Shown here: positions 8,351 to 64,000 of the stretch, one piece after another | How positions within the stretch are numbered: the stretch's first letter is position 1 | Layout: each line of letters begins with the position of its first letter | The notes under the pieces: generated by a model | What the model saw: the letters and a program-made list of their open reading frames with translations, nothing else | Database searches by the model: none | What the model was told of the DNA's origin: nothing | DNA from: a virus | Length of the DNA stretch: 64,000 nt | Reading direction: 5' to 3' (one strand) | IMG/VR virus record: IMGVR_UViG_3300028558_000016 | Coordinates: 406,014-470,013 of that record | Position numbers and translations under genes: made by a program

Positions 8351-8360
8351 TGGAAATTAT

Positions 8361-8450: not shown

Positions 8451-8456
8451 CACATG

Positions 8457-8530: not shown

Positions 8531-8539
8531 AAAGAAGCA

Positions 8540-12043: not shown

Positions 12044-12047
12044 CATT

Positions 12048-12121: not shown

Positions 12122-12126
12122 CAAAT

Positions 12127-12199: not shown

Positions 12200-12223
12200 C
12201 TGAAGTAAAATGGAATTAAATAT

Positions 12224-12313: not shown

Positions 12314-12328
12314 CTTAAAATTAAAGTT

Positions 12329-35427: not shown

Positions 35428-35888
35428 TAGAAATCGCTAAATTTTTTTATGTTCTTCAAACCATTTGATTTTTCAAATGTTGCGGGTTCTCCAGAAGTGT
35501 AATCCATGAGTCCAGTATCTACAGGTTCTCCTTTAACTCCAGACTGATTTCCTTTATCACCGCCTTCAGCGAATTTAACGCTGCTTGGAGCCAATTCAAT
35601 AACCTCACCGTCTTCTTCTATCTCAATGGATATGTTCTCTCCTTTTTCATCCTTCTGAACTCTAACAACACTACCTGTGTGTTCTTTAGAATCTTCAACA
35701 CCTTTTCCAGTTATGAAATCTCCTTCTTCAATTCCATCGATAACGTCATTGACAGGTTTATCAATAGAGTCTGGGGCTTTCTTGTTAGAAAGAGTATCCA
35801 ATGAACGATAACGAATCTTAAAGATGTCATTAGCGTATGTTGGATCCCACATGGATGGAAGATCTTCAAAAAGTTTTATGTGCTTCAT
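35427..35888 (-). CDS. MKHIKLFE-leader family member (MKHIKLFEDL), 153 aa
   Basis: N-terminal motif. Confidence 0.5.
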   Translation of the reverse strand: MKHIKLFEDLPSMWDPTYANDIFKIRYRSLDTLSNKKAPDSIDKPVNDVIDGIEEGDFITGKGVEDSKEHTGSVVRVQKDEKGENISIEIEEDGEVIELAPSSVKFAEGGDKGNQSGVKGEPVDTGLMDYTSGEPATFEKSNGLKNIKKFSDF

Positions 35889-47200: not shown

Positions 47201-47658
47201 AAAGCCATCACGCTTAATCCTTCGCCACCTTCTTTTATTTTCTTCGTGTCAATGCTTTGAAATTGATCTGAGATTTTCTTTAAAAATTGTATTAAATTAT
47301 CGACGGCATCCTCTGGGATTTTTGAATAAAATTTCAAAGCAACGTTTAAAGATTTTAAACCTTCCGTCAATGCCTTGAATCCTTCTTTTAGTTTTGGACC
47401 TGCCTCAGCCAAATCAGAAAGACTGCTTGTTAAATTCTTAAATTTATTTGCTATTCCTCCCAATGCGGCTTCCTCAGCTTTTCCACCAGATTTACCGCTT
47501 CCGCCTTTACCAATAGAGTCGAGCCTGTCAGCAAGTCTGTCCAACGTGGCAGCTTGTTGTTCTGCAAGGGACTCCAACTTGTTAACTACGTGGTCCATCG
47601 ATCTTGCCGAATCGACCAACATAGATGCGGCCATTAATAATGCTTTTTCTGATGCCAT
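44299..47658 (-). CDS. large (1119 aa) multi-TM protein with an N-terminal coiled coil and internal tandem repeats; possible tape-measure or ejection protein
   Basis: More than 10 hydrophobic helices; repeated about 70-aa units (…GAAALLVASIAMITLS…); C-terminal duplicated FPIYDKNGK(I/Q)TG; 41-nt exact DNA repeat at 46270 and 46470. Confidence 0.45.
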   Translation of the reverse strand: MASEKALLMAASMLVDSARSMDHVVNKLESLAEQQAATLDRLADRLDSIGKGGSGKSGGKAEEAALGGIANKFKNLTSSLSDLAEAGPKLKEGFKALTEGLKSLNVALKFYSKIPEDAVDNLIQFLKKISDQFQSIDTKKIKEGGEGLSVMALGIAQLGLVLFLATPLYVIGAIGSLIIIPMLALYAYTFSKIGEVAENITEGAKSIGWMSLGIVGFSIALFATKELAGGSWKAYAEGALIVIAGLTVFSLAFYFLGQFADPIEQGAKAAAWMGLALISLAFGIASFQLLKIDIKSVLIAGAAVAVTGLAMGLVGMFASEIEEGALALAFGGLALIALALGIGSFKLFKITSEDFLMAGAAVVAVGGAMFLAGLMAIPILLGAAALLVASIAMITLSLGILTLNAVYQKAMTGLLAPSTQYPDESNMEVMIGGIADAFAINPIKSVFMLAGAAALLVASIAMITLSVGLLAINFAFNKAKDGILKQDPNDPEELMMNSVITGIVSAFTINPIKSAFMLLGAAGLIVASVALITLTGGLLAFNFAYKKSAMLFEESTMSAYKGRTNIDAALSSVVDGMVMGPIKLLGFYASVPAWLMAGFALMSIAGGLAGFANIIQRGIPGGIEGVSKSVNSVLTSVLNAFVDVSRGKGTAVDWDDVEDGIDAVSGVGNIIKGMAEGVAKMADLKFPIYDKNGKITGYFGIGDKQFQQVTTNMKMLITAIAGTLTEVGKSQGETGWFSKSDGEKGAEVIRGIGGDLVGLADFVQKAANLTFPIYDKNGKQTGVTVIDPSMLAEGGSVRTNIINMIKAVTGALADVGSGEAANSGWFRDSDIEKGKAAIQGISADLNGIAAMVTSVAAVKDFSQVANRIKLTLMVIPQAFLDAAKIIEPNKEKLEAVTNIFGTLVDPLKNFIDLLAKVEEKKITEKTGSGLSSSLSKIMATIAGIKPNMDMTSLDKAVGYLERMAATADPLTKLADSFERIAKSMDKFAGTFKKMDGKTVKTSDLLIQSLVTFAKVDPNAFSTLTDKGAALINFIYEKGNAKPATPVTEPTPTTAINSEPGKTAVKPAEVATQTKPGAQQNNAQLTQMMTDLTTNMASMAGALKDIKMILQGTLKVQTVA

Positions 47659-51224: not shown

Positions 51225-51758
51225 CTACTTGTCCATCAAGGACAGATTGTGCAACTCTATCTTAGCGATGAGCTTTTTAGAATAACCTGGATCTGTTGCA
51301 TATCCAGCTTTAAGCAATCCCTCGGCCCAACCCTTATAGTCGCATGGGTCCAGTTTGAAAAGGAAAGCGTATCGTTTTGCGCCTGCAAGGAAAACTGAAT
51401 GGTCTCTGTAAGAATCGAGAACCGTCGGATATTTTCTAAAGCATTCGTCTTTTAAATCGTCAGTGTATTTGTAGGTTTCTCCCCACCAATCTCCCTTGCA
51501 TTTTATTCCAAAGTGGTTGTTGGCCTTTGTGGCAAGGTCGCTCTTTCCAGCAGCACTTTCTAACAATGCCTGAGCGAGAGTTATGCTTGCCGGAATTTTG
51601 AAGATCTTCATCTCAAGTATGGCAGCATCTCTGTATTTAGAAATGTATTCGCTCTCGGTTTTAAATTCTATCTCAGCCGAAACGGCAGGTGAAAATTCTC
51701 TATAAATGAAGAAAATAACTATGAAAGAGAAGAATAATCCTATTAATAAATTTTTCAT
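51225..51758 (-). CDS. endolysin: N-acetylglucosaminidase (GH73/FlgJ-like) with an N-terminal signal-anchor
   Basis: LAQALLESAAGKSDLATKANNHFGIK ... YPTVLDSYRDHSVFL matches the glucosaminidase family (AQAxLESGWG ... NNLFGIK); N-terminal TM helix. Confidence 0.7.
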   Translation of the reverse strand: MKNLLIGLFFSFIVIFFIYREFSPAVSAEIEFKTESEYISKYRDAAILEMKIFKIPASITLAQALLESAAGKSDLATKANNHFGIKCKGDWWGETYKYTDDLKDECFRKYPTVLDSYRDHSVFLAGAKRYAFLFKLDPCDYKGWAEGLLKAGYATDPGYSKKLIAKIELHNLSLMDK

Positions 51759-52030
51759 TTTTTCTTGTAGAAATCAAATAAATCCTGCCACATGTGCTGG
51801 TTGGTTCCAGTCTTAATGTCTTCCAAATAGGCATCAAACATTCCTCTGTCCTGTCTGTATAAGTAATCACCGGCTAAACTCTTTCTTGCTCCTGTCGCTC
51901 TGCTGCTTGCGGTCTTGTTGTCTTTTCCATAAACCTCGTTCATGAGTTTTCTCAATAAAGGAGCCGTGATAATCTTTTTAAAATTCTCAAGTTCTTGGTC
52001 AAATCCCTCGAATATTTTTAGGTATTTCAT
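51755..52030 (-). CDS. MKHIKLFE-leader family member (MKYLKIFEGF)
   Basis: Conserved N-terminal motif. Confidence 0.5.
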   Translation of the reverse strand: MKYLKIFEGFDQELENFKKIITAPLLRKLMNEVYGKDNKTASSRATGARKSLAGDYLYRQDRGMFDAYLEDIKTGTNQHMWQDLFDFYKKK

Positions 52031-52380
52031 TTGATGTTATTCTTCTTGAGAACCGCTCTGTACATCTTGGCGATGTCATTGAGCTGAGGAATTCCGTCAA
52101 ATTCCATTCTCGCCTGAGTCACTCGGTCTTTCTTAAGTTTATCCTTTCCAGAACCATCATATTCAGTGTATTCTATGAAAAGATTCTTGTTCTTGTAAAC
52201 TACCGGCTTATATTTCATTGGAGCTTCCCATGTGCTCGATTTGTCGATTACTTCCAAAGGATCTCCATCAATATCAATCGCTTTAGCAATCAAAGCATTT
52301 ACCTCTGCAACCTTCTTTTGAATTGCTGCGTCTGACATCCCCTCATTTAGGAAGTTCTCATATAGTTTTATGTGTTTCAT
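52027..52380 (-). CDS. MKHIKLFE-leader family member (MKHIKLYENFLNE)
   Basis: Conserved N-terminal motif. Confidence 0.55.
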   Translation of the reverse strand: MKHIKLYENFLNEGMSDAAIQKKVAEVNALIAKAIDIDGDPLEVIDKSSTWEAPMKYKPVVYKNKNLFIEYTEYDGSGKDKLKKDRVTQARMEFDGIPQLNDIAKMYRAVLKKNNIK

Positions 52381-52985
52381 GTAATGGAAGCTTCTACGGT
52401 AGCTTTAATTATTTTTGGCATTTCGTCTTCAAAATTCTTTGCGAGATTAACGGTATCTATATTAGACAATTCGGCAATGACATCATGCGTTGACAAGAAA
52501 GAATCCAATAATTCATCAGAAAGCTTTCCAGCAACAATGCAAATCATTACTGTTAGAGCAACGTTACCGAATGTTTTCTTTTGTTCTCCGTTCAACGAAT
52601 CTATGAAATTCTTCAAAAGAGGAATCTTATTAGAAATTCTTAAAATCAATTTGAAAATTCCTGCCGTGTATATGTCTCCTTTGTGCTTCAACCATTCAGC
52701 CATTTTAAATGTGACTCTGCCAACCTTCTCGCTTGATTCCATTCCAATATATGTCAATGCAGCACTCGCGAGATGTGCTACTTTTCCAAGACTCAATGCT
52801 GCACCTATTGCTAATGTGGCCAAAACGGCTTCATTATTTCCGTCAAGCTTTGCTACAAGCACTCCGTCTTTTTTAATCTCTTTCTCGGTATCGGAAGCGA
52901 TCTTATCGTCATCAACGATTTTTAATATCTCGTCGAAGATGTTTACGTCGATCTCAAATTCCTCAAACAGTTTTATGTGTCGCAT
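52377..52985 (-). CDS. MKHIKLFE-leader family member (MRHIKLFEEFE), 202 aa
   Basis: Conserved N-terminal motif. Confidence 0.55.
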   Translation of the reverse strand: MRHIKLFEEFEIDVNIFDEILKIVDDDKIASDTEKEIKKDGVLVAKLDGNNEAVLATLAIGAALSLGKVAHLASAALTYIGMESSEKVGRVTFKMAEWLKHKGDIYTAGIFKLILRISNKIPLLKNFIDSLNGEQKKTFGNVALTVMICIVAGKLSDELLDSFLSTHDVIAELSNIDTVNLAKNFEDEMPKIIKATVEASIT

Positions 52986-53242
52986 TACTTTTCTTCTTTA
53001 TCTGTTTCTTCCCATTCTCTTATGGTGCCTTCAGCATCCCATAGAGCACAACACATTCTCTCAGAAACCTTCTGGTCAACCTGAGGATGCTTGCACATCT
53101 TTTCTTTTAGATCTATGAATTTACAATTAGCACAGTTTGTGCCTTCAACATTTTCTGGAAGCGTGACAAGATCTGCCGCTTTTGCTCTATCGAGACGGCT
53201 TGGTTTGTCCTCTTCATTCTCGTAAATCTTTAAGTGTTTCAT
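52985..53242 (-). CDS. family member (MKHLKIYENEED)
   Basis: Conserved N-terminal motif. Confidence 0.5.
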   Translation of the reverse strand: MKHLKIYENEEDKPSRLDRAKAADLVTLPENVEGTNCANCKFIDLKEKMCKHPQVDQKVSERMCCALWDAEGTIREWEETDKEEK

Positions 53243-53244
53243 TG

Positions 53245-53574
53245 TTATCCGAGTAATTTTTCAAGCTTTTTAACGAGCGTTTCTACGGTAGTTGAATATC
53301 CGTATAAACCATTAATGTCTGTTCCAAGACTTACTCCTCTGTTTGACATTGTAATTTTGAAATTGGTTCCAAGATAGGAACATTCAAAATAATCATTGGT
53401 AAAAAAGTCTATGTCATCATTTTTAATGACAGTCTTCTTTATTCTTATTCCAGCGGCCTTCAATTGAGTAGCAACAGCGCTCATGTATTCTTTCTTTGCT
53501 TCGCTGTAGATTCCACGTTTGACGTCCATAAGATTTCCAGCAGATGCAGCCTCAAATAATTGTAAGTGTTTCAT
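53245..53574 (-). CDS. family member (MKHLQLFEAA)
   Basis: Conserved N-terminal motif. Confidence 0.5.
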   Translation of the reverse strand: MKHLQLFEAASAGNLMDVKRGIYSEAKKEYMSAVATQLKAAGIRIKKTVIKNDDIDFFTNDYFECSYLGTNFKITMSNRGVSLGTDINGLYGYSTTVETLVKKLEKLLG

Positions 53575-53575
53575 A

Positions 53576-53884
53576 TTATGCTTTAGCTCTTTTTATGTGC
53601 AAGTAAACAAACTCATCCACGTCTTCCAAGCTTCCCTTTACTTTCTTTGGAAATTTGTCAGTCACCAACTTATAAATACGTCTTGCTTCTGTCTTATCTT
53701 TATCACCTGGAGTTTCATCTCCTGTGTTACCATTTTCTCTTGTAGTCAATAGGATCTCATCATCGTCTTCCTCTTCAATGTCAAACCAACTATGTTCTTT
53801 CTTTACGAAATCACATATTTCTTTCCATTCAGTCGAGGTTGTTTCTTCGTTCAAGAATCCCTCAAATAGTTTAATGTGTTTCAT
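53576..53884 (-). CDS. family member (MKHIKLFEGFLNE)
   Basis: Conserved N-terminal motif. Confidence 0.55.
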   Translation of the reverse strand: MKHIKLFEGFLNEETTSTEWKEICDFVKKEHSWFDIEEEDDDEILLTTRENGNTGDETPGDKDKTEARRIYKLVTDKFPKKVKGSLEDVDEFVYLHIKRAKA

Positions 53885-53886
53885 AT

Positions 53887-54282
53887 TTAAGATTTTTTAG
53901 TTTGGTCGCTGATGTCTCCAGGTTCTACGTCTGCTGGAATTTCTTCCACGATGTCAACCATAGTTCTGTTATACAAAGCTGCTTCCTTTTCTGAAAAAGA
54001 ATCAGATAAAGCTTTGATGAAAGCCTTTGGAGTTTTTGGATTTAAGTTGATGCTTCTCTTATGTGAGTGTCCAATCTCAAGAGTGTAACCGAAATATCCG
54101 ATCATGTCCTCAACTGTTCCCTTCACATATTTAATTCTTGTTCTTCCTTGACCCTTGTCGTAGGTTACTTTAACGATGAAAGCTTTTCCAGGTTTTGCTG
54201 GCTTTGCAGCTGATTCAGGATTAGGTGCATCAGTGAATTTATTCTCGTTGATAAATCCTTCAAACAATTTAATGTGTTTCAT
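53887..54282 (-). CDS. family member (MKHIKLFEGFINE)
   Basis: Conserved N-terminal motif. Confidence 0.55.
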   Translation of the reverse strand: MKHIKLFEGFINENKFTDAPNPESAAKPAKPGKAFIVKVTYDKGQGRTRIKYVKGTVEDMIGYFGYTLEIGHSHKRSINLNPKTPKAFIKALSDSFSEKEAALYNRTMVDIVEEIPADVEPGDISDQTKKS

Positions 54283-55267
54283 TCTTCTTGATTATTATTT
54301 CTCTGTTACCAGGTATAACGTTGTATTCTTTTCCTAAAACATCCTGTATCATTTTGATCTTGCTCGTCATGTCACCGGTTTGTTTAACCGTAAATCTTCC
54401 AGTAGCATCGAAGGTCTTGCTGTATGTTATAGGTTTCCATGTGCTGTCTGTTCCGAAATTATGTCCAAAGCTATCTCCAAGTTTTGCTCTTAATAATTTT
54501 AATACCTCTTTATATGGATGTGTTTCTGCCGTTTTTACTATTTTTACTGGAACTTTTAATCTCGATTTTATCTTCAGCATGTTAGTGTTCTCGCTCTCGT
54601 CTGGAGTGCTTAATGCTTCCAAATAAATTTTTTCTGTAAATTTCTTAGCATCTTCTATTTGGTCCTTTTCAAATCTTTTATTCATAACCATGTTTGGACC
54701 GCTGGTAGTTTGAAATGAAATCTTCCATTGGTCAAGACCGTCTCCTCCAAGATTTGAAGCTAAAAAACCAGAATTGTATAATGATGCAACAGTCTCTCCG
54801 TGAATGGTCAAATGCCAAGCTCTTAATTCATTGTCATGGCCTATTGAAGATTTTCCATATTCTTTGGCATTCTGCTTCCAAGAAAATTTAACGGATTCTT
54901 CAGCTTCATCCAATTCCTCGTTGGATTTTCTGTCTCCCATTATGGTGTAATAAGTTCCTTCACCGTTCATGCCTTCGCCAATAATGTCAAGCTTGTAATC
55001 GCTTTTTTGTAATGCTTCTATGGCATCCCATGCGTGACCTTCTGAATCGAAGTAGTCATCGGTTCCATCAAATCCTTCATAATCGTCATCAACGGTCAAC
55101 TCGTGGATGTAAAGAGTCTCACCTGCTTTCAACCTCTCTTTTACTTCTTTAACCTCTTCCTTATCGAAATATTCTTCATAATCAGAAAAACTCTGTGAAG
55201 TTAATTTTTCAAAATCTGGGCCGAGATCATTAGGATCGAAATTTTCAAATAGCTTAATGTGTTTCAT
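54269..55267 (-). CDS. family member (MKHIKLFENFDPND), 332 aa; start trimmed to the MKHIK Met
   Basis: Conserved motif at an internal Met of the annotated ORF. Confidence 0.5.
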   Translation of the reverse strand: MKHIKLFENFDPNDLGPDFEKLTSQSFSDYEEYFDKEEVKEVKERLKAGETLYIHELTVDDDYEGFDGTDDYFDSEGHAWDAIEALQKSDYKLDIIGEGMNGEGTYYTIMGDRKSNEELDEAEESVKFSWKQNAKEYGKSSIGHDNELRAWHLTIHGETVASLYNSGFLASNLGGDGLDQWKISFQTTSGPNMVMNKRFEKDQIEDAKKFTEKIYLEALSTPDESENTNMLKIKSRLKVPVKIVKTAETHPYKEVLKLLRAKLGDSFGHNFGTDSTWKPITYSKTFDATGRFTVKQTGDMTSKIKMIQDVLGKEYNVIPGNREIIIKKNETH

Positions 55268-55269
55268 TA

Positions 55270-55530
55270 TTATGCTTTGCTTGCTTTTACCCATTCATCC
55301 CAAAAGTCTTCACCGTCCATTAAATAATAACCTATGAAGTCGGCTATCTTTTCTGGAAAATCTTCGATGCCTTTTATTTTTTTAGGATCAATTCCAAATC
55401 TTTTAGCGTTATCAAACACGAATTTACCCAAAGGCTCTTTCATGTGTCCTCTGTTTCCAAGCTCTTTTGTAACTTTTTCTACAGTGTTTAATTCTGTATG
55501 GAAGTTCTCGAATAATTTAATGTGCTTCAT
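55270..55530 (-). CDS. family member (MKHIKLFENFHTE)
   Basis: Conserved N-terminal motif. Confidence 0.55.
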   Translation of the reverse strand: MKHIKLFENFHTELNTVEKVTKELGNRGHMKEPLGKFVFDNAKRFGIDPKKIKGIEDFPEKIADFIGYYLMDGEDFWDEWVKASKA

Positions 55531-55540
55531 AATTATAAAT

Positions 55541-55837
55541 TTATTTTACCCAATCCTTAGATCTTCCGGCGTTGTCATCTCCTAAATTATTCTTGTATTG
55601 CTCGTGTTCTTTCTTGTCTTCAGGTTTAAGCAAAGGTTCAACCTCTTTATAAGTTGCATCCTGACAATCGTCAAGACTCTTTCCAATCTTATACTTGATC
55701 ATGTAATTGGTTTCTCCAGCCATGTCACCAAACGGTTCTTCCCAAAAGAACACTTTCTTTCCGTTAGTTAAGTCGTAATAGTCTGGACCCATGTTTGAAT
55801 CCTGATCGAAATCCTCAAATAATTTAATGTGATTCAT
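55541..55837 (-). CDS. family member (MNHIKLFEDFDQD)
   Basis: Conserved N-terminal motif. Confidence 0.55.
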   Translation of the reverse strand: MNHIKLFEDFDQDSNMGPDYYDLTNGKKVFFWEEPFGDMAGETNYMIKYKIGKSLDDCQDATYKEVEPLLKPEDKKEHEQYKNNLGDDNAGRSKDWVK

Positions 55838-56247
55838 TATTTAAAACTTTTAGTTAAAAAATTCCATGCAGCGTTTGCTTCAGACTCTTTCTTAATATCT
55901 ACTGATGCTATAGTTCCAGCCATTGGATCGTCGTATAGAATAGAAAATTTTCCTTCTTCATTAAAGAAGAATAGTTGTCTTTCTGACTTATCTTCGTTCT
56001 CAAGGAAATATCCATCAATAGAATTACCCTGTTTAATTTCCATATCAGATGCTTCAGAGACAGTCCATTTTCCTTTTTTTGATTTTACATCATTAGAAAA
56101 ATCTTCTAAAAATTTCTTGAAGCTCTCATACTCTTCATCATAAGTAAGAACGTCCAATGCGAACTTTCCAACTTTTTCTATAGCGTTAGCAACGTCAACG
56201 AGGATCCCCTCGTTTGTAAATTGCTCAAATAGTTTAATGTGCTTCAT
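55837..56247 (-). CDS. family member (MKHIKLFEQFTNE)
   Basis: Conserved N-terminal motif. Confidence 0.55.
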   Translation of the reverse strand: MKHIKLFEQFTNEGILVDVANAIEKVGKFALDVLTYDEEYESFKKFLEDFSNDVKSKKGKWTVSEASDMEIKQGNSIDGYFLENEDKSERQLFFFNEEGKFSILYDDPMAGTIASVDIKKESEANAAWNFLTKSFK

Positions 56248-56429
56248 TATTTCTTATTAAGGATTTCTTCTATTTTTGTCCTCTGTTCAACAGACAAAGC
56301 AATTGGTTTGCCCATGTGAATGAACGAATAAACGGTTTCGCCTGAATTTTTACCTTCAGCTCTTTCTATTCTTATTTGTTCTGGGTTAAGATAGTTTGTA
56401 TCTTTTTCGAAAATTTTAATGTGTTTCAT
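56247..56429 (-). CDS. family member (MKHIKIFEKDTN), 60 aa
   Basis: Conserved N-terminal motif. Confidence 0.45.
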   Translation of the reverse strand: MKHIKIFEKDTNYLNPEQIRIERAEGKNSGETVYSFIHMGKPIALSVEQRTKIEEILNKK

Positions 56430-56430
56430 G

Positions 56431-56916
56431 TTACTTGTTCTTTAAATATGTATCAAGCAATTTCTTGCCGCTTTTCGTCCACTTCTGTTTGTATAGGTCT
56501 ATGTCCTTCCAACGTTTCAGAGCTTCCTTAAATAATTCCATACCAGTTCCCTTTGATTGTTCTTTTGGATCGACCATGACATTTATGTTTCCCTTGTCCT
56601 CGTATGGTGGAAAATCGAACGGGTAATGATTTAAAACACCTATGAGCTTTCCTGATTTATTTCTATATAAAAGACAGTCAACCCATTTGTCTCCAACCTC
56701 ACCTTTGAAATAACTTATTCCAGGTTCTCCTTTTTTATCATATTGTCCAATCTGGTGATCCCAGAATTCCTTGAAGTTTTCAATGTCTGGAATCTCAATG
56801 ACCTTCTTCTTTGAATTCGCTTTTTCCACGTTTGCTCTAACGTGAGCCAAATCATGAGACTTTGCGTATTGGTCGTCCTTGTTTTCAAATAACTTAAAAG
56901 ACGTTAGGTGTTTCAT
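56431..56916 (-). CDS. family member (MKHLTSFKLFENKDD), 161 aa
   Basis: Conserved N-terminal motif. Confidence 0.5.
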   Translation of the reverse strand: MKHLTSFKLFENKDDQYAKSHDLAHVRANVEKANSKKKVIEIPDIENFKEFWDHQIGQYDKKGEPGISYFKGEVGDKWVDCLLYRNKSGKLIGVLNHYPFDFPPYEDKGNINVMVDPKEQSKGTGMELFKEALKRWKDIDLYKQKWTKSGKKLLDTYLKNK

Positions 56917-57140
56917 AAAGATGCAATACTTTTTTTAAATGAATCAACATCAGATTGAGACTCAGATATAAAATACTTTACGCCTGAATGTGAAGCTAAT
57001 AAAAACATTTTGTGTTCTTTTGCCAGCTTGGTGATTTTCTTGTTAGTTTCTGAATCTTTCGACCATATCTTAACACCTAAAAAATCCTTTAAAAATTCAA
57101 TATTTGAGTTTTCACCCTCAAAAAGCTTTATGTGTTTCAT
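56913..57140 (-). CDS. family member (MKHIKLFEGENSN); start trimmed to the MKHIK Met
   Basis: Conserved motif at an internal Met. Confidence 0.45.
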   Translation of the reverse strand: MKHIKLFEGENSNIEFLKDFLGVKIWSKDSETNKKITKLAKEHKMFLLASHSGVKYFISESQSDVDSFKKSIASL

Positions 57141-57160
57141 TATCGTATATATTTGGTTAT

Positions 57161-57190
57161 AAAACAAAAACAGCAGGTTTCCCTGCTGTT
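57161..57190 (-). terminator. rho-independent terminator (− strand) after the tail-tube gene
   Basis: ACAGCAGG-TTTCC-CTGCTGT with AAAACAAAAA on the + side. Confidence 0.65.
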
Positions 57191-57219
57191 CCGTTAATTT
57201 TATTGAAGTAAACCGAATA

Positions 57220-57789
57220 TTAGACGAAAGTGTCCTCCCAGTAGTCAGCTGCAAATGTCAGCGACAGAATCCAAACGTCAGTAGATTGGTAATCTAATTC
57301 CATTGGATTGATAGGAGTGATAGGCCACATTACCGGTAGTCTCACTTTTCTGTGAATGTCTCCAGCTTTGTTGAATATTGTTATTAAACCTGAACCAACG
57401 TAATCCTTCTTTAATCCCATACCACCGGTATTTGGATTGTAGATAAGGTCGCTCCATTGTCTCAAAGTCTTGAAGGTGTACATGCTGTTTGCATCGTTTA
57501 AGTTAACCTCGAAATCGATTGCTACATCGATCGTGGTTGTCTCTGGACGAGCACCTGCATACCTTCTCTTAGCGAACTTGTAGTATTGTTCCACAGTTCC
57601 AGGGTTCTTGTCTATCTCTAAACCAGATACCTTCTTAACGTGTTCCAACAATAGGTTCTGCCCGTTGTTTCCTGTTCCAGCATCAATTCCAGAGGGTGGA
57701 ATCAATGTGACTTCGAACTGATTCAAAAATACAGGTTCGAAATTTTTCATCGAAGCCTTACTATTCTTATAATGCGATAAACCTGCCAT
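57220..57789 (-). CDS. tail tube protein (T4 gp19-like)
   Basis: N-terminus EPVFLNQFEVTL matches gp19 RPNLFQVEIS; C-terminus PVMWPITPINPMELDYQSTDVWILSLTFAADYWE matches gp19 GLWPTNVGELQLDWDSNNEIQTFEVTLALDYWE; has its own terminator and a 170-bp upstream region. Confidence 0.6.
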   Translation of the reverse strand: MAGLSHYKNSKASMKNFEPVFLNQFEVTLIPPSGIDAGTGNNGQNLLLEHVKKVSGLEIDKNPGTVEQYYKFAKRRYAGARPETTTIDVAIDFEVNLNDANSMYTFKTLRQWSDLIYNPNTGGMGLKKDYVGSGLITIFNKAGDIHRKVRLPVMWPITPINPMELDYQSTDVWILSLTFAADYWEDTFV

Positions 57790-57958
57790 TATTATAAAGT
57801 GTTATTTTTCTCTTTTATTATATATCTAAACAGTTTCGAATTTCCACTTAAACCCATGAGCTGTCTTTCTTTTTGTTCCAGCACAACATTCACGTATGTT
57901 TCTGTGATTATAACCTGTTTCTCTATATATCTCGTATCTTGTATATGACAGACTTCAT

Positions 57959-58210
57959 TTACTTTATATTCCCGTCTTTATCCCAAGTTTTTTCTCCAGC
58001 CAAATTATTATCAGGTTTTATTGTCTTTAGAATGTCTTGGTATTTGATCTTGTATTGTTTAGCTATTTCTTTCGCTGCCTTTATAGTTCTTGTATTGGAA
58101 CCTAAAACCTTTTTGTATAATTCCTTTTTCAAGGAATAAAAATCTCTAAGGACTTCATCCATAACAACCTCTTCGTTCAGAAAATTTTCGTATAATTTAA
58201 TATGTTTCAT
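57959..58210 (-). CDS. family member (MKHIKLYENFLNEE); start trimmed
   Basis: Conserved motif; TAATG overlap with the upstream stop. Confidence 0.5.
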   Translation of the reverse strand: MKHIKLYENFLNEEVVMDEVLRDFYSLKKELYKKVLGSNTRTIKAAKEIAKQYKIKYQDILKTIKPDNNLAGEKTWDKDGNIK

Positions 58211-58548
58211 TATTCTGTTCTTAAAGGCCAATTCTTCTTTATTCCTTCTATGTTAGCATTAAGCCATTCCTTTGCAGCCTCTAACGTCTCAGACTCATGT
58301 TTCAATGTAATCCACTTCCACTTGCAATTAGGATTGTCATCCGTTATGGTTGTCCCGTTCTTCATGACCATGAACCTAATCTTAAATGGCTTCTCTGGGT
58401 TAATACTTCCAACTTCAAAACCTTTAAGCTTAATATGATGACTTGAACTATAGAATGATCTGTAACGTCCGGTAGGTTTTTCAGTTTTGAACGTGAACTT
58501 TTCAACTGCTTCATTCAAGAAGTTTTCATATAGTTTTACGTGTTTCAT
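58210..58548 (-). CDS. family member (MKHVKLYENFLNE)
   Basis: Conserved N-terminal motif. Confidence 0.55.
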   Translation of the reverse strand: MKHVKLYENFLNEAVEKFTFKTEKPTGRYRSFYSSSHHIKLKGFEVGSINPEKPFKIRFMVMKNGTTITDDNPNCKWKWITLKHESETLEAAKEWLNANIEGIKKNWPLRTE

Positions 58549-58838
58549 TATTTAAAGTCTTTCAGCCAGCCTTTTTGCTCTGCATATTTTGCATGTTCTG
58601 TGTCAAGCTGTGTTGTATCTCCTTCAACATCGTTCACCATCAATTGAAGCGCATCATCTATGGTTGCAGGAGTTATTTCTCCTCTTAACATTCCGAAGAA
58701 GAAATATTCTGTTCCAGCTTGCATGTCATCTAAAACTTTCTTTTGTTCTGGAGTTGCAACTGACATAACCTTCTTTGCCTTTTCTGTATTATCGGTTTTC
58801 TCGTTTAAGAAACCTTCAAACAATTTAATGTGCTTCAT
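58548..58838 (-). CDS. family member (MKHIKLFEGFLNE)
   Basis: Conserved N-terminal motif. Confidence 0.55.
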   Translation of the reverse strand: MKHIKLFEGFLNEKTDNTEKAKKVMSVATPEQKKVLDDMQAGTEYFFFGMLRGEITPATIDDALQLMVNDVEGDTTQLDTEHAKYAEQKGWLKDFK

Positions 58839-58845
58839 ATATTTA

Positions 58846-59142
58846 TTAATCTATTCTTAATGCACCTTGCATGTGGCCAAACAGGTAAACCCCGTAAGCT
58901 GATGTGAACTCAATCGTATAACCAACAAGATCTCCTCCTTTGGTGTTTCTAAATTGCTTGAATTCAGATACGTGTTTCTGGTCCTTCATTTTTGTAAGAA
59001 TGTTCTCTACGTTGGAAACCTGATCCTGACCAAATGAAACATCCAGTGTTACTGGAACTTTTTCTTTTGGAAATCCATCTCTGAATTTTGTCGTATCATT
59101 TTCTGAAGCACCAAAATTTTCAAATAATTTTATGTTTTTCAT
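58846..59142 (-). CDS. family member (MKNIKLFENFG)
   Basis: Conserved N-terminal motif. Confidence 0.55.
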   Translation of the reverse strand: MKNIKLFENFGASENDTTKFRDGFPKEKVPVTLDVSFGQDQVSNVENILTKMKDQKHVSEFKQFRNTKGGDLVGYTIEFTSAYGVYLFGHMQGALRID

Positions 59143-59423
59143 TATTTAATTTTTTCTATTTGTGAAATAATATCCTTCTTCAAAGCGGCTTTTATTCCAG
59201 GAGACAAAGCATCTCCAGCTTCATCCAATGCAGCCTTTGCTTTCTTGGTGAATTCATCAAGAGCTTTAATAAGATCTTCCACGGCTTTCTTTGGTTTACC
59301 GTATTTGTAATCATCGTACGTCAACCAATGGCTCAATTCAGCTTCATTGATTCCGCTAATTTGTGCTAATCTTGCTTTTAATTCGCTGGTATCGAATTTT
59401 TCAAATTGTTTGATGTTCTTCAT
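59142..59423 (-). CDS. family member (MKNIKQFEKFD)
   Basis: Conserved N-terminal motif. Confidence 0.55.
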   Translation of the reverse strand: MKNIKQFEKFDTSELKARLAQISGINEAELSHWLTYDDYKYGKPKKAVEDLIKALDEFTKKAKAALDEAGDALSPGIKAALKKDIISQIEKIK

Positions 59424-59716
59424 TACAATTTCTTTATTTCTTGTGCTAAGTCATCGAAGTTTGAATCTTCCAATGCGTATGAAGCAACATCTATAATCTT
59501 GTCGCCATCCCACTCACAAAACTTAGATACGATTATTCCAAGAACCTGTTCGTCAGTTATCTTTCCAGACTTCTGTGCTTCAGGCGTGAATATCACACTC
59601 TTGCAATAAGCTATAATCGGAGTTAAATGTTCCTTGATATAAGCTTCTGTGTTCTCAGGAACCTTTGTGAAAGGAGCTGAAACCTCATTTAAGAATTCGT
59701 CGAATTTCTTTATCAT
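59423..59716 (-). CDS. family member (MIKKFDEFLNE)
   Basis: Conserved N-terminal motif (shortened). Confidence 0.5.
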   Translation of the reverse strand: MIKKFDEFLNEVSAPFTKVPENTEAYIKEHLTPIIAYCKSVIFTPEAQKSGKITDEQVLGIIVSKFCEWDGDKIIDVASYALEDSNFDDLAQEIKKL

Positions 59717-60240
59717 TATGCTGCTTGTTTAAATTTACCTGCTTTCATCTGTTCTTTCCATTCCTTCCATAAATCGAAATAAGATCTCTTGAAGTAATCC
59801 TTGCCATAATCCTTAAGGAGGTCAAGGTCCTTCAACATCTGCAATTTCTCATTAGCAATCTTTGCCGTTGCAGCAAACATTACTCCTGAGCTTTGTCCTA
59901 TCATCCATTCCCAATTTGCAATTCCTTTTGTGTAACCATACTTGTCAACACAAACGTAAGAAGCTTCATCTTGTAAATACAAATCAAAATACTTTGAACC
60001 TTCTGATGCCATCATGCCAACCGGTTTTGGAGCCGGAGCCATTCTTGGTCTTACCTCATCTACGTCTTTTATTTTGTCTGCATATCTTTTCTTTTCTGAA
60101 TCATCTTCATTGACAGGTGCCTTTTCCGATTTTGCATCGAATAAATCTCCAAATGCATCATCATCCCAAGTTGTGTCAGGTTTAGTTTCTCCTGGATCTT
60201 GCTCGTTGAGGAAAGCCTCATATAGTTTTACGTGTTTCAT
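59716..60240 (-). CDS. family member (MKHVKLYEAFLNE), 174 aa
   Basis: Conserved N-terminal motif. Confidence 0.55.
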   Translation of the reverse strand: MKHVKLYEAFLNEQDPGETKPDTTWDDDAFGDLFDAKSEKAPVNEDDSEKKRYADKIKDVDEVRPRMAPAPKPVGMMASEGSKYFDLYLQDEASYVCVDKYGYTKGIANWEWMIGQSSGVMFAATAKIANEKLQMLKDLDLLKDYGKDYFKRSYFDLWKEWKEQMKAGKFKQAA

Positions 60241-60241
60241 A

Positions 60242-60577
60242 TTATTCGTCTTTTTTCATTAATTGAGCTACCTGAGATCTTTCTACTTTCACTGTGTCTC
60301 CAATTTTCACATTGTGCACGACAGCAGGATCGTTATCAAGCTTTCCTTCAAAATGATCTGCGTCAACAACCTTCTCAATGTTAACCCACATCCATTCGAC
60401 TTCCTCATCTTCTATGAAAGCAATCTTAACCCAATCTCCAATTTCTACAGGAGTCTTTGCGTTATCGTCTTGCCATTTTTTAAGTCTTGCATATCCTGCA
60501 TCCTTATGAAGAATTCCAAGATTTTCAATTGGTTCTCTTTCTTCGTTAAATTCTCCGAATTGTTTAATGCGGTTCAT
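60242..60577 (-). CDS. family member (MNRIKQFGEFNEE)
   Basis: Conserved N-terminal motif. Confidence 0.5.
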   Translation of the reverse strand: MNRIKQFGEFNEEREPIENLGILHKDAGYARLKKWQDDNAKTPVEIGDWVKIAFIEDEEVEWMWVNIEKVVDADHFEGKLDNDPAVVHNVKIGDTVKVERSQVAQLMKKDE

Positions 60578-60578
60578 A

Positions 60579-60950
60579 TTATTTTCTTTGGTTTTTGAAA
60601 TGATTATTAAACTTCATCTGTTGAATAAAATCTTGTCTCTTCAATGATTTGAGAACCGCACCATACGCTTCCCACGCATCTCCAAGGTTAATGTGTTGTA
60701 AAGTGATATTATCTCCACCATTATCTTTGGTAACTCTGTATTGTGCACGTCCGTCACCCATAGGCATCTCCCAAATAAAACCAACGAGATTTTGTTCTGT
60801 TGCTTTATCAGAAGCTTCTTCCAATTCCTTTTCTACTTTGTTATATTCAGCTTCATCTTTATCCCAACCTATGAGAGTTTCTTTAGGATACGATTCCTTT
60901 TCAAGCTTTGCTTCTCCCAAGAAGCTTTCAAATAATTTTAATCTTTTCAT
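60579..60950 (-). CDS. family member (MKRLKLFESFLGE)
   Basis: Conserved N-terminal motif. Confidence 0.55.
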   Translation of the reverse strand: MKRLKLFESFLGEAKLEKESYPKETLIGWDKDEAEYNKVEKELEEASDKATEQNLVGFIWEMPMGDGRAQYRVTKDNGGDNITLQHINLGDAWEAYGAVLKSLKRQDFIQQMKFNNHFKNQRK

Positions 60951-61558
60951 TTCTTAATTTCTTTTACTTTTGGAAGAGCTAATACTTTCTTTAAATCGTC
61001 TTCGGTGATATAGAATTTTCCTCTTGCTTCTATTCCTCCACCAAGTACAATATTCCCATCAGCATCGATCTTTGACCATGAATACATTGGAAAATGCATG
61101 TTCATTGCTTCAGTTTCTTCTTCAGTTAAATCTCTCTTTATAGGTTCTTTAGGAAGTGTTGGCTTGTCAAATTGCTTTACCAACTTCATTGCTTCAGTTG
61201 ATTCGTTTACAAACGAAACCTCAGACTCATTTATTCTTACAGTCTTTTCAAAATCGTCAAAGCTTTTCATGTTGTATATATTTTGATTATTCTCGAACAA
61301 TCCAGGATATAAATGAACCATGTCAGGCATTGGAAGGGGATCAACCTCTTGCAATAAATTCAAGATGTCATCACCTATTTCCTTTGTAGGAAAACTAACT
61401 TCGTATGTGACATCCTTGCCACTTCTGCTTTCTTCCTTAACTGAAGCTCCAAGAACTTCAAGTCTCATTATGATATTGTCATCAAGATTATACATCGTGA
61501 TTATTCCTGAATTAGCAACATTGTACTCGTTAAGGAAATCTTCAAATAGCTTTATCAT
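60947..61558 (-). CDS. family member (MIKLFEDFLNE), 203 aa
   Basis: Conserved N-terminal motif. Confidence 0.5.
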   Translation of the reverse strand: MIKLFEDFLNEYNVANSGIITMYNLDDNIIMRLEVLGASVKEESRSGKDVTYEVSFPTKEIGDDILNLLQEVDPLPMPDMVHLYPGLFENNQNIYNMKSFDDFEKTVRINESEVSFVNESTEAMKLVKQFDKPTLPKEPIKRDLTEEETEAMNMHFPMYSWSKIDADGNIVLGGGIEARGKFYITEDDLKKVLALPKVKEIKK

Positions 61559-61603
61559 TTTTTAGGTTTGGTTTTAGGTTTTTTAGGAAAGCAACACATG
61601 TTA

Positions 61604-61906
61604 TTATTTGTTTATGTCTAATAGTTCTTTGATGATGTACTTCTTATTCTTCTCATACATTTTCTTTTCATCTTCGGTGAACGATGGAGCACACATTCTT
61701 TTGTACACATCTTCAATGACTTGTATCTTTGTCTTCTCTTCAAGAAACTTAAACAGCTTATTACCCTTCATTAACCCTGAAATATCATCGTTAATGTCTT
61801 TGATTAGTTTTTCTTTAGAATCTTCCACATCATTTTTTCCAATCGCATATTTACTGTGCGTTGCATAATGAGCATCCAATCCCTCGAAAGTTTTTAGGTT
61901 TTTCAT
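61604..61906 (-). CDS. family member (MKNLKTFEGLD)
   Basis: Conserved N-terminal motif. Confidence 0.5.
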   Translation of the reverse strand: MKNLKTFEGLDAHYATHSKYAIGKNDVEDSKEKLIKDINDDISGLMKGNKLFKFLEEKTKIQVIEDVYKRMCAPSFTEDEKKMYEKNKKYIIKELLDINK

Positions 61907-62313
61907 TTGTTTTTCTTTTTTAGTTCATCTTTTATCTCGATCACAAGTCTCTCTACGTTATTCAATTGCTTCTTTATTTGTCTTATCTCTTTCTCAGCCT
62001 TCATGTCAATATCCAAATCCTGCATGGATCTCTTTCTGTCTCGCTCCTCAACTCTTCTTTGGCTCATCATAATTATGGGAGCCTGTAATGCTGCCACTGT
62101 TGATAATATCAAATTCAGTAATATGAATGGATATGGATCAAACGGCTTCCAAAGAAATTGAACAGAATTTATTATCATCCACAAGAACAAAAATCCAAGG
62201 AACGATAATATGAATGCCCAGCTTCCACCAAACTTCGATATTTTGTCAGAGACTCTATCTGCAAATGAAAGAATTTCTTCTTCGTTTCCTATTGTAGAAT
62301 TTTGGTCTTTCAT
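61903..62313 (-). CDS. membrane protein (136 aa), not a family member
   Basis: Two TM helices; C-terminal coiled coil. Confidence 0.45.
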   Translation of the reverse strand: MKDQNSTIGNEEEILSFADRVSDKISKFGGSWAFILSFLGFLFLWMIINSVQFLWKPFDPYPFILLNLILSTVAALQAPIIMMSQRRVEERDRKRSMQDLDIDMKAEKEIRQIKKQLNNVERLVIEIKDELKKKNK

Positions 62314-62537
62314 TAAATACCTTCTTTTATTGATTTAGCATCTTTTTTCGTGAGATATTGATTTATGTAAACAACCAATAAATCCGCCTTAGGATTAACA
62401 CCATCAACTTCTTCTGCGTTTGATGTTAATTGTTCCAACAAATTGTCTAATTCTTTTGTATGAAAATAAGCATCATCACCATGTGGACCTGCTTCATTTA
62501 ATTCGTTAAATCCTTTTATGTTTTTCATGTTAGTCAA
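62313..62537 (-). CDS. family member (MTNMKNIKGFNELNE)
   Basis: Conserved N-terminal motif. Confidence 0.5.
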   Translation of the reverse strand: MTNMKNIKGFNELNEAGPHGDDAYFHTKELDNLLEQLTSNAEEVDGVNPKADLLVVYINQYLTKKDAKSIKEGI

Positions 62538-63018
62538 GTCTTATATCTATTATAGATGGAATTTGTTTGTGCAATGCACCTAAAGTTCCATTGTGTCCAT
62601 ACATCATACTGCTCGTGTTTCTGAACGGTTTAGGTAGATCTTCATACGCATCTGACGGATTTAATTCATCATCCAATTTAATGAAAACAGTATTAACACC
62701 ACCAGTTGATTCTCCGTCTTCGAATATATCGTATCCTTCAACAAAAATATCCAATTCTGGAATGTATCCTAAATAAGACTCTTGTCCATCAACTTCTCCT
62801 GAATCTCCTTTTAATTGGTTATCGGCAAATTCCATTAAAACTTTCATATAGATCTTATCAAAGAATTCATTTCCTCTGTATGTCAACTTATCATGGTAGT
62901 GATCGTTGATCACCTTTGTTGCTTCTGCGTGATTCATGCCTTTAGTTGCAGTAATCTCAAACTTTTCTTTTCCAACTTTTTCACCAAGGAACGACTCAAA
63001 TAATTTAATATGTTTCAT
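62530..63018 (-). CDS. family member (MKHIKLFESFLGE), 162 aa
   Basis: Conserved N-terminal motif. Confidence 0.55.
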   Translation of the reverse strand: MKHIKLFESFLGEKVGKEKFEITATKGMNHAEATKVINDHYHDKLTYRGNEFFDKIYMKVLMEFADNQLKGDSGEVDGQESYLGYIPELDIFVEGYDIFEDGESTGGVNTVFIKLDDELNPSDAYEDLPKPFRNTSSMMYGHNGTLGALHKQIPSIIDIRLD

Positions 63019-63024
63019 AAGATA

Positions 63025-63336
63025 TTAGTTTTTTGGAATTCCATAATCATTTTGAGCTGCCTCAATGTCAGATATAATAAGATCTTTTAATTGAGAAGCA
63101 ATCTTCTGGTATTCTTCATGAAGCTTGATCATCTTATCAAACGCAGATCCATTATGTTTTCTTGCTTCGATGTATTCATCGAAGTCACCGCCAAATAATC
63201 CTTCTTCTTGTGCTATTTCAAATGCACCATAGAAATTATATTTCTCGCAAGCAGCATCAAAAAGTTTTAAACCTTCTAAGTTGATTTCGTTTTCGTCATT
63301 CTCATTGAGCTCATCAAATCTTTTTATATTCTTCAT
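63025..63336 (-). CDS. family member (MKNIKRFDELNE)
   Basis: Conserved N-terminal motif. Confidence 0.55.
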   Translation of the reverse strand: MKNIKRFDELNENDENEINLEGLKLFDAACEKYNFYGAFEIAQEEGLFGGDFDEYIEARKHNGSAFDKMIKLHEEYQKIASQLKDLIISDIEAAQNDYGIPKN

Positions 63337-63348
63337 GTTAGTTATTGT

Positions 63349-63633
63349 TTATTTCAATTCAAATAATTTTACGAACTTTTTAAGTTCTCCTGAATCTCCT
63401 TCAGAATTTTTGCTTATTACAAGTACCATATTATCCGTAACGAATTGTGCATCACAGTTTGCTTGTTCAGCAACGGATCTAATCCATTTTACTTTATTTG
63501 GAATGTTCTTATTGTTAGACAAGTAAAGAACTATAGCATTATCGTATCCTGAAATCTCTTCAGATGTTTGATAACTGTTTTGTGAACCTTCATTTAGTTC
63601 ATTTAGTTCATTGAAGTTCTTAATGTTTTTCAT
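63349..63633 (-). CDS. family member (MKNIKNFNELNE)
   Basis: Conserved N-terminal motif. Confidence 0.55.
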   Translation of the reverse strand: MKNIKNFNELNELNEGSQNSYQTSEEISGYDNAIVLYLSNNKNIPNKVKWIRSVAEQANCDAQFVTDNMVLVISKNSEGDSGELKKFVKLFELK

Positions 63634-63892
63634 AGTTCTTCATTTTATTTTCGTAATCATTGATTTGCTCCATTGACAACCATTCAGGCTTTTCTTTTAA
63701 AGCATTCCATATCTTTTTCATTTCAGCGATCTGTTTTTCAACAGACCCTTGATGTAAAACTCTTTCAGAACCTTTTCCATAATTCAAGAAATATTCACAA
63801 TCTGATTGTAATCTATTAAGCATCATGTAATCAAATTCTGTACCTTCGTTTAAAAATGCTTCGTATAATTTTATATTCTTCATGGATGTCAA
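63620..63892 (-). CDS. family member (MTSMKNIKLYEAFLNE)
   Basis: Conserved N-terminal motif. Confidence 0.5.
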   Translation of the reverse strand: MTSMKNIKLYEAFLNEGTEFDYMMLNRLQSDCEYFLNYGKGSERVLHQGSVEKQIAEMKKIWNALKEKPEWLSMEQINDYENKMKNYEKH

Positions 63893-63904: not shown

Positions 63905-63939
63905 AAAAAAGGCGAAGAGAATTCTCCCCTCGCCTTTTT
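63905..63939. terminator. bidirectional hairpin terminator-like element upstream of the array
   Basis: AAAAAA-GGCGAAGAGAATTCTCCCCTCGCC-TTTTT. Confidence 0.5.
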
Positions 63940-64000
63940 AGCTTTTTTGTTAGTTATGTGATTACGCGATTGTAAATCCACCAGATGCAATTGCACCTGT

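Follow-up and report, generated by a model that had tools for sequence, protein, structure and literature searches.

Organization of the leader-gene array

The stretch of DNA analysed here (positions 406,014 to 470,013 of the IMG/VR virus record IMGVR_UViG_3300028558_000016; 64,000 nucleotides, hereafter the window) derives from a huge phage related to the Lak or "huge phage" clade, and its proteins occur identically on a 482,156-bp contig. Between positions 51755 and 63883 the minus strand carries an array of 32 back-to-back genes, 30 of which were found, from the open reading frame (ORF) listing and regular-expression scans, to begin with the same short N-terminal leader, referred to below also as the tag. 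A first-pass annotation had described about 30 small genes with a common 13-residue leader at this place, a description that holds. The canonical form of the leader is MKHIKLFExF(L/I)NE; a sub-variant, MKNIKxFxELNE, is shorter by one residue, two short forms (MIKLFEDFLNE and MIKKFDEFLNE) also occur, and one leader contains an insertion (MKHLTSFKLFENK). The two array genes lacking a leader encode a tail-tube homologue (57220-57789) and a DUF1003 membrane protein (61903-62313). About eight further copies are dispersed over the window, at 10804(+), 33761(+), 34037(-), 35427(-), 26841(-) and 10040(+), with weaker ones at 34654(-) and 35143(-), in agreement with the at least seven noticed earlier. 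The number of tagged genes in 64 kb is about 38.

When the first eight codons (M-K-[HN]-I-K-x-[FY]-E) were searched for as a strict degenerate DNA pattern, the window gave 15 matches and each of 100 shuffles none, a count far above chance. The array proteins are 60-332 aa long and, as had been claimed, their bodies are unrelated: once the first 15 residues were removed from 34 leader proteins, no pair was detected at a BLASTP E value below 0.01. An ordinary paralogous family was rejected because the trimmed bodies yield no such pair and the members match different Pfam families.

Intergenic spacing within the array ranges from -14 to +12 nt, with three exceptions (45, 79, and 169 nt). Strong terminator-like hairpins lie directly 3' of the sheath gene (63914-63929) and of the tail-tube gene (57167-57192), and for this reason the array appears to be split into at least two transcription units and is not obviously the single operon that it had been taken for. 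The T4 late-promoter motif TATAAATA was not enriched in the window (six found, four expected), and sigma-70-like promoters occurred at the frequency of shuffled sequence. An ORF of 248 aa on the plus strand (52372-53118) was discarded as an antisense artefact of the ORF listing.

Conservation of the leader as a peptide

What is conserved in the leader is the amino-acid sequence, while synonymous variation runs free. A comparison of 351 leader pairs over the first 24 nt gave no identical pair (mean identity 74%), and the DNA upstream of the leader genes shows no conservation. Conserved residues are encoded by drifting codons, including AAA/AAG, ATA/ATT/ATC, five leucine codons, TTT/TTC, and GAA/GAG. 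The proposal that the genes recombine through identical 24-nt 5' ends is without basis, since no leader pair is identical over that length.

Conservation stops sharply at residue 13, and the window leaders are already quite variable beyond residue 8. On a helix the hydrophobic residues I4, F7, F10, and L11 lie on the same side. A Sec, Tat, or lipoprotein signal peptide was rejected, as the first annotation had also concluded: the leader is rich in lysine and glutamate, has just four to five hydrophobic residues, disposed with helical periodicity, and lacks the hydrophobic core of some 10-15 residues that follows a basic N-region.

Likeness to the T4 capsid-targeting sequence

The internal proteins of phage T4 have in common only a 10-residue capsid-targeting sequence (CTS), by which they are loaded onto the scaffolding core (PMC9026906, PMC3012670). 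Residues 4 and 7 of the CTS are needed for targeting and residues 8 and 10 for processing (PMC9026906), and the gp21 protease cleaves after L/I-x-E, classically at a Glu-Ala bond (PMC9026906, PMC3012670). CTS residues 4, 7, 8, and 10 align with leader residues F7, F10, [ILV]11, and E13, respectively. In a T4-like Enterobacter phage, the N-terminus of the internal head protein reads MKTYKEFINEAV, and the tag consensus among the IMG/VR loci listed (see below) is MKHIKLFEQFINE, followed mostly by E, A, or K.

A hidden Markov model (HMM) built from megaphage leaders only was run against 137 ORF N-termini from a 50-kb segment of the T4-like Enterobacter phage. The annotated internal head protein ranked first (E 3.5e-4) and an unannotated gene between denV and the lysozyme gene, starting with MKTYNEFLNEAA, ranked second (E 5.6e-3), with the third rank at E 0.37. 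This ranking of two T4-type internal-protein N-termini bears out the resemblance to the CTS suggested earlier. On the T4 map, the place between denV and the lysozyme gene is the ipII/ipIII position. In Enterobacter phage myPSH1140, gp104 (locus L152, 14645-14941, minus strand), a "hypothetical protein" encoded between the endonuclease V and lysozyme genes, starts with MKTYNEFLNEAAEQK; because this start is a clear CTS, gp104 is probably an unannotated internal head protein.

The first annotation had also noted one or two (L/I)-x-E motifs in the leader. Among 31 canonical leaders of the window, a hydrophobic-x-Glu motif (h-x-E) is found at residues 6-8 in 23, and at the distal position, residues 11-13, in only 10. 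In the listed IMG/VR tags the distal motif occurs in 100 of 203. The residue that follows it is Ala in 32% of these 100 tags, against a background of 5.7% (p 5e-16), and Ser in 17%, while in tags without the distal motif residue 14 is Ala in 1 of 103; the sequences behind these statistics are not phylogenetically independent.

Cargo domains and modularity of the tag

Single window members match the LPD11 and DUF2314 families and, weakly, GNAT. Across the tagged proteins the cargo types include LPD11, lysozymes matching the PHROG "internal virion lysozyme motif", GNAT, ankyrin, and leucine-rich repeat (LRR) proteins. Two families allowed tagged and untagged homologues to be compared. Of 28 homologues of the LPD11 member, the majority have the tag and then, before the domain, a linker of roughly 0-15 residues; some seven lack any N-terminal extension, and the N-terminal region of another three is different. 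The family of the 58210-58548 gene product comprises six sequences with the tag, five whose first residues already belong to the domain, and one extended in some other way. In both families the closest homologues are tagged, with a variable linker, and the more distant ones begin at the domain. No tagged genes were found on the contigs of leaderless homologues (0 of 25 and 0 of 48 ORFs).

AlphaFold2 models of both members place the tag as a low-confidence helix apart from the folded domain. In the LPD11 member the predicted local distance difference test (pLDDT) score is 53 for the leader and 93-98 for the domain; in the 58210-58548 member the leader helix spans residues 3-12 with a pLDDT of 48, below 50, and the domain reaches about 90. 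A Foldseek search of the latter model against the PDB gave nothing below E 1. By the homologues and models together, the tag is detachable from its cargo.

Distribution of the tag among viruses

A scan of IMG/VR with the eight-codon pattern gave more than 116 stretches among the matches listed, many with two to eight tagged genes each. The listed stretches encode 226 tagged proteins in 130 sequence clusters. Positions 9-13 of these tags lie outside the search pattern, and there F/Y/W occurs at position 10 in 91%, I/V/L at position 11 in 60%, and E/D at position 13 in 72%. Frequent neighbours of the tagged genes in the listed stretches are T4-type UvsW, gp32, polB, primase, and NrdB. The neighbouring UvsW is closest to that of LR756500, a 462-kb uncultured phage (57%), followed by huge phages of 634-642 kb that include LR756502 and LR756504 (36-39%) and by T4-like cyanophages (34%).

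The tag is restricted to viruses. In 596 Gb of bacterial and archaeal genomes the same pattern was found on eight contigs, all from metagenome-assembled genomes (MAGs), where about three were expected by chance according to our own estimate, which assumes uniform base composition. Six of these eight matches (loci L122-L129, e.g. L126, CAZXZK010000149.1, and L123, CAIWBA010000291.1) show a leader-type ORF. One 2-kb "Cytophagales" MAG contig has four tagged genes, and another match lies on a 254-kb contig (L123) in a Bacteroidetes bin. The tagged MAG contigs are probably phage contigs binned with bacteria, and they may hint at the host.

Related huge phages also encode the tag: 24 ORFs of LR756500 carry it, as MKYIKEYEEF[ILV]xE, and 40-kb pieces of LR756502 and LR756504 have 11 and four tagged ORFs, respectively. 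Among cultured phages no bearer of the tag was found; in the relative PTm1 it was absent from a whole-genome scan, and the leader HMM had no hit there (0/451). The array had no megablast match in 50,697 phage records; tblastn with a 20-aa leader query, which is too short for such a search, gave none either. A blastn search with a 41-nt leader query returned mostly noise, but pointed to a T4-like Ip7 gene.

Genomic setting and turnover of the array

The tail tube encoded within the array is 41% identical by tblastn to that of LR756500, 39% to those of Prevotella Lak megaphages, and 32-33% to those of Tenacibaculum phage PTm1 and Sphingomonas phage PAU; the PTm1 homologue, ORF-019 (33%), adjoins the PTm1 sheath gene. 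The gene order in the window is sheath, terminator, array, tail tube, terminator, array, and endolysin. In a syntenic relative (loci L145/L146) it is large terminase, sheath, LPD11-tag gene, 11 small genes, tail tube, seven small genes, glucosaminidase, and UVR protein. By this order the array is a pair of blocks that interrupt the late tail module as insertions.

Flanking genes are 70-93% identical between the window and L145 (tail tube 93%), and nine collinear array orthologues are 39-76% identical. At least 10 cassettes of L145 and at least 20 of the window have no counterpart in the other array, so that the expected difference in array content between related phages was indeed found. Turnover is by gain, loss, or replacement of whole tag-plus-cargo cassettes. 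The DUF1003 membrane protein is absent at the matching L145 position.

A T4-like virion, inferred earlier from the tail tube alone, is supported by the tail tube lying near the sheath and large terminase genes in L145 and by the head genes of LR756500. This closest complete relative encodes a Peptidase_S77 (gp21-family) protease (E 6e-11), to which a long scaffold-like tail is fused, as well as a Gp23-family capsid protein (E 8e-34), whose N-terminus, MIKLINEA…WAPIIEG, contains I-N-E and I-I-E. This N-terminus probably parallels that of T4 gp23. The same LR756500 capsid protein (225025-226689, minus strand; loci L135-L144) starts with MIKLINEAEIM…, resembling the short tag form MIKLFEDFLNE, and capsid protein N-termini may share the recognition or cleavage logic of the tag. 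PTm1 is likewise annotated with a gp21-family protease and a gp23-type capsid protein. Neither protein is encoded in the 64-kb window itself.

Individual genes of the array

The genes are described here in the direction of the minus strand, and those given without further comment were identified by the leader scans. The final 39 nt of the window (63962-64000) are the 3' end of the tail sheath gene, and the encoded residues (TGAIASGGFTIA, followed by the stop codon) are identical to the C-terminus of an 894-aa Phage_sheath protein in L145. The terminator-like hairpin with T-run that follows (63914-63929), between the sheath and the first array gene, is kept in L145. The array begins with the gene of the LPD11 member (63620-63883; 87 aa), which has the leader MKNIKLYEAFLNE and a complete LPD11 domain (Pfam E 2.8e-31, residues 16-81). 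Two genes of the shorter sub-variant come next, MKNIKNFNELNELNE (63349-63633; 94 aa) and MKNIKRFDELNE (63025-63336; 103 aa), followed by MKHIKLFESFLGE (62530-63018; 162 aa; leader HMM E 1.3e-9) and by a further sub-variant gene, MKNIKGFNELNE (62313-62528; 71 aa), with an L145 ortholog 39% identical. The leaderless DUF1003 protein (136 aa; Pfam E 1.3e-35) stands mid-array at this point.

Beyond it lie MKNLKTFEGLD (61604-61906; 100 aa; L145 ortholog 50% identical), the short form MIKLFEDFLNE (60947-61558; 203 aa; 47%), MKRLKLFESFLGE (60579-60950; 123 aa), and MNRIKQFGEFNEE with a DUF2314 domain (60242-60577; 111 aa; Pfam E 5e-7). They are followed by MKHVKLYEAFLNE (59716-60240; 174 aa), 69% identical to its L145 ortholog, the short form MIKKFDEFLNE (59423-59716; 97 aa), MKNIKQFEKFD (59142-59423; 93 aa), MKNIKLFENFG (58846-59142; 98 aa; L145 ortholog 70% identical), and MKHIKLFEGFLNE (58548-58838; 96 aa). 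The next gene, MKHVKLYENFLNE (58210-58548; 112 aa), characterized by its homologue family and AlphaFold2 model, is predicted to encode a beta-rich domain whose fold has no match in the PDB, and MKHIKLYENFLNE (57959-58210; 83 aa) is the last before the tail tube. The gp19-like tail-tube protein (57220-57789; 189 aa) carries no leader and matches PHROG tail-tube families; the hairpin directly after its gene (57167-57192), detected in a hairpin scan, has an 11-bp stem and a T-run.

The second block opens with MKHIKLFEGEN (56913-57140; 75 aa) and the gene whose leader has the insertion (56431-56916; 161 aa), the body of which is weakly GNAT-like (Acetyltransf_1, E 1.3e-3, under the Pfam cut-off). 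MKHIKIFEKD (56247-56429; 60 aa), MKHIKLFEQFTNE (55837-56247; 136 aa; L145 ortholog 76% identical), MNHIKLFEDFD (55541-55837; 98 aa), and MKHIKLFENFH (55270-55530; 86 aa) come before the largest member, MKHIKLFENFD (54269-55267; 332 aa), which has no Pfam match. Then follow MKHIKLFEGFINE (53887-54282; 131 aa), a second MKHIKLFEGFLNE gene (53576-53884; 102 aa), MKHLQLFEAAS (53245-53574; 109 aa), MKHLKIYENEE (52985-53242; 85 aa), and MRHIKLFEEFE (52377-52985; 202 aa), which has a hydrophobic, transmembrane-like segment. A second MKHIKLYENFLNE gene (52027-52380; 117 aa), with an L145 ortholog 66% identical, and MKYLKIFEGFD (51755-52030; 91 aa) end the array. Its flank is formed by an endolysin-like Glucosaminidase with an N-terminal hydrophobic segment (51225-51758, minus strand; Pfam E 1.7e-35; PHROG endolysin), found at the same position in L145.

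The dispersed leader genes on the minus strand are MKHIKLFEDLP (35427-35888; 153 aa), MKYLKLFEKFRDE (34037-34654; 205 aa), and MRHLRTFESFVCE (26841-27368; 175 aa; leader HMM E 3e-3). On the plus strand lie the leader-like MENLKTFESFND (33761-34036; 91 aa), the sub-variant MKNLKKFGELNE (10804-11100; 98 aa), and the weak MKHLQTYQQLNES (10040-10576; 178 aa; leader HMM E 9e-3).

Other features of the window

Elsewhere the window encodes nine tRNAs, homologues of aminoacyl-tRNA synthetases, a sigma factor, a protein resembling L7/L12, and a probable MoxR-VWA pair. A major vault protein (MVP) homologue of 838 aa (30744-33260, plus strand) matches Pfam Vault_3 and MVP_shoulder and aligns collinearly with solved MVP chains (E 2e-20; query residues 470-798 against chain residues 453-801). 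It is 52% identical to a protein of LR756500 and 50% to one of the 735-kb phage LR756501/3; tblastn detected homologues in three of 50,697 phage records.

On the plus strand, tRNA-Trp and two tRNA-His genes lie just upstream of the ORFs 8471-9172 and 9169-9900 (region 7902-9900). A pooled Pfam scan of the window ORFs contains HisRS and Trp/Tyr-RS families, which we infer to belong to these two ORFs. Three tRNA-Arg genes precede an ORF on the same strand with an ArgRS catalytic-domain match (12287-13492; region 11970-13492). A VWA-domain protein of 579 aa (14503-16242, plus strand) follows ORF 13550-14506, which is probably the AAA/MoxR-type ATPase of the pooled scan; if so, the two would form a MoxR-VWA chaperone-like pair. 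Further families in the pooled scan of positions 1-50323 are an L7/L12 C-terminal-domain homologue, a sigma-70 family factor, ADP-ribosylglycohydrolase, dCMP deaminase, CoaE, NUDIX, SLT, and a PD-(D/E)XK nuclease, all of them typical huge-phage cargo. A protein of 1119 aa (44299-47658, minus strand) has no significant family match, only sub-threshold hits to TraI_C and DUF3991; its LR756500 counterpart is 24% identical over 421 aa.

A proposed capsid address and its alternatives

The 13-residue N-terminus is best read as a portable capsid address and propeptide of the T4 CTS type, expanded to dozens of cargoes, a reading to which we give slightly better than an even chance. The tag would form a short amphipathic helix followed by a flexible linker and would dock unrelated cargoes onto the scaffold/protease core of the assembling prohead. 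A gp21-family prohead protease would then remove it after (L/I/V)-x-E, at E13 or E8. The mature cargoes would remain in the head alongside the packaged DNA and be delivered into the host together with it. Among the sheath, tube, and endolysin genes of the late tail operon, the array itself would be an inserted, fast-changing tag-plus-cargo block in which whole cassettes come, go, or are exchanged. This reading refines the earlier hypothesis of capsid-packaged effectors, of which the likeness to the CTS, the T4-like virion, and the variable gene content were upheld and the identical 5' DNA ends were not; a distal h-x-E is present in only a third of the window leaders. It draws as well on the modularity of the tag, its restriction to viruses, the location in a late module, and the T4-type protease and capsid protein of the relative.

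Several observations weigh against it. The cargoes are mostly acidic (pI below 6 in 20 of 34), T4 internal proteins being basic, and some resemble cytoplasmic enzymes, e.g. a cytidylyltransferase-like protein. Window leaders without h-x-E at residues 11-13 would have to be cut at L-F-E(8) or else stay uncut, and the residue-14 statistics suffer from the phylogenetic dependence mentioned above. The best 120 of 732 matches included no recognisable protease of the source phage, and PTm1 has the same head module and no tag. Many leader genes on other contigs adjoin replication genes and not structural ones, and late expression is for that reason not the general rule. With more than 35 different cargoes in 64 kb, the set would far exceed any documented for a CTS.

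The tag could instead be a handle for another phage or host partner, such as a chaperone, a timed degron system, or an early-protein hub, with the cargoes acting unpackaged in the producing cell. Any dedicated tag-receptor system would yield a modular, virus-specific, and genome-specific tag, and the many tagged genes among replication genes would fit, as would acidic cargoes of which some look enzymatic or cytoplasmic. This explanation nevertheless seems unlikely to us: it accounts neither for the retrieval of T4-type internal proteins by the leader profile, nor for the coupling of h-x-E with Ala or Ser, nor for the position of the largest array within a sheath-tube-endolysin late module, and no candidate receptor was identified. 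It is improbable, too, that the common N-terminus is an inert leftover or generic helix, spread by cassette duplication and illegitimate recombination under weak selection for folding or solubility and without any addressing role. Large phages often have arrays of small, fast-evolving genes, and the window leaders do vary much beyond residue 8; still, the peptide is under purifying selection across genomes of 24% to about 36% GC while its codons drift freely, it is joined to unrelated folds (LPD11, DUF2314, GNAT, lysozyme, ankyrin, LRR), and its conservation has a sharp boundary at residue 13, after which the linkers vary.

Two further explanations carry very little weight. That the tag loads a compartment other than the capsid, the candidate being a vault-like shell of the MVP homologue, was suggested by the window and LR756500, which both have leaders, leader genes nearby, and 52%-identical MVP homologues, and by PTm1, which has neither leader nor MVP. 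Yet the tag resembles the T4 CTS and no known vault-binding domain, and tblastn found no MVP homologue in LR756502 (11 leader ORFs in 40 kb) or LR756504 (four); MVP was rejected as the tag receptor because these two phages bear the tag and lack MVP, and a compartment of this kind is very improbable. Least credible of all is that conservation acts on the mRNA, through an A/T-rich, unstructured 5' coding region suited to the Shine-Dalgarno-less initiation of Bacteroidota, and not on the peptide. The upstream regions are A-rich, without an obvious Shine-Dalgarno sequence, and the leader codons are A/T-rich, as this would predict, but amino acids are kept while synonymous codons vary, with 0 of 351 pairs identical over 24 nt, and the aromatic and acidic positions follow a helical periodicity. 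Moreover, the tail tube and sheath, highly expressed genes of the same operon, lack the tag, and the motif is at chance level in the 596 Gb of cellular genomes, Bacteroidota included. Synonymous drift and chance-level occurrence in cellular genomes led us to reject the mRNA-level reading.

Comparison with known systems

If the tag is a capsid address, its nearest parallel is the CTS of T4 IPI, IPII, IPIII, and Alt, also a short N-terminal propeptide that is the sole common part of unrelated small proteins. Both follow the pattern aromatic-x-x-F-(I/L)-x-E, and in part of the tags a cleavage-type L/I-x-E is followed by Ala. Related phages differ in their sets of these genes, as T-even phages do at their polymorphic internal-protein loci. 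The lineage also has, like T4, a protease of the gp21 family and a capsid protein of the gp23 family. The tag has 13 residues, unlike the 10 of the CTS, with an additional H-I-K after M-K; at least 30 tagged genes lie in one array and about 38 in 64 kb, whereas T4 has three to four; the array lies within a sheath-tube module, the cargoes are mostly acidic, and about two thirds of the window members lack the distal h-x-E, all in contrast to T4.

The giant phages phiKZ, 201phi2-1, and SPN3US package many ejection or inner-body proteins in the head and process them after Glu by a gp21-related protease, and the SPN3US paralogues gp53 and gp54 have an identical N-terminal 15-mer. Their propeptides, however, mostly exceed 100 aa, there is no universal short tag, the cleavage motif is S/A-x-E, and these phages belong to a different lineage, one that has a virion RNA polymerase and forms a phage nucleus. 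The LPD11 domain, complete in one window cargo, is otherwise found in polyvalent proteins (Iyer et al. 2017), which are predicted to be injected with phage DNA; these join many domains in one giant polypeptide, whereas here each domain is a separate small tagged gene. Encapsulin cargo-loading peptides and the INT-domain loading of vaults are similar in that a short portable peptide addresses diverse cargo into a protein shell. The encapsulin peptides differ in being usually C-terminal and in having no sequence relation to the tag, and the vault parallel, which gains from the MVP homologue encoded in the same window, is weakened by the absence of MVP from the tag-bearing LR756502 and LR756504.

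Implications

It is known for T-even phages that diverse internal proteins have only the CTS in common. A 13-residue version of such a sequence on at least 30 adjacent genes, across a clade of uncultured huge phages, was not found in the literature searched, which covered exact strings, keyword combinations, and jumbo-phage reviews and contained no description of the motif. The broader proposition, for which we see a little less than an even chance, is that huge phages related to Lak and "Mahaphage" load dozens of rapidly exchanged effectors into the capsid by means of one universal 13-residue tag, the virion being a protein-delivery vehicle as well.

If true, this would extend the T4 internal-protein principle from three or four proteins to dozens per genome and help explain the non-DNA contents of very large capsids. 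The proteins injected by uncultured megaphages could be listed from sequence only, so that an injected "effectorome" would become readable across hundreds of such phages, and hundreds of orphan genes would become candidate effectors of host takeover or anti-defence. A portable tag of 13 residues would also be a candidate means of bringing foreign proteins into large capsids, a use already made of the T4 CTS.

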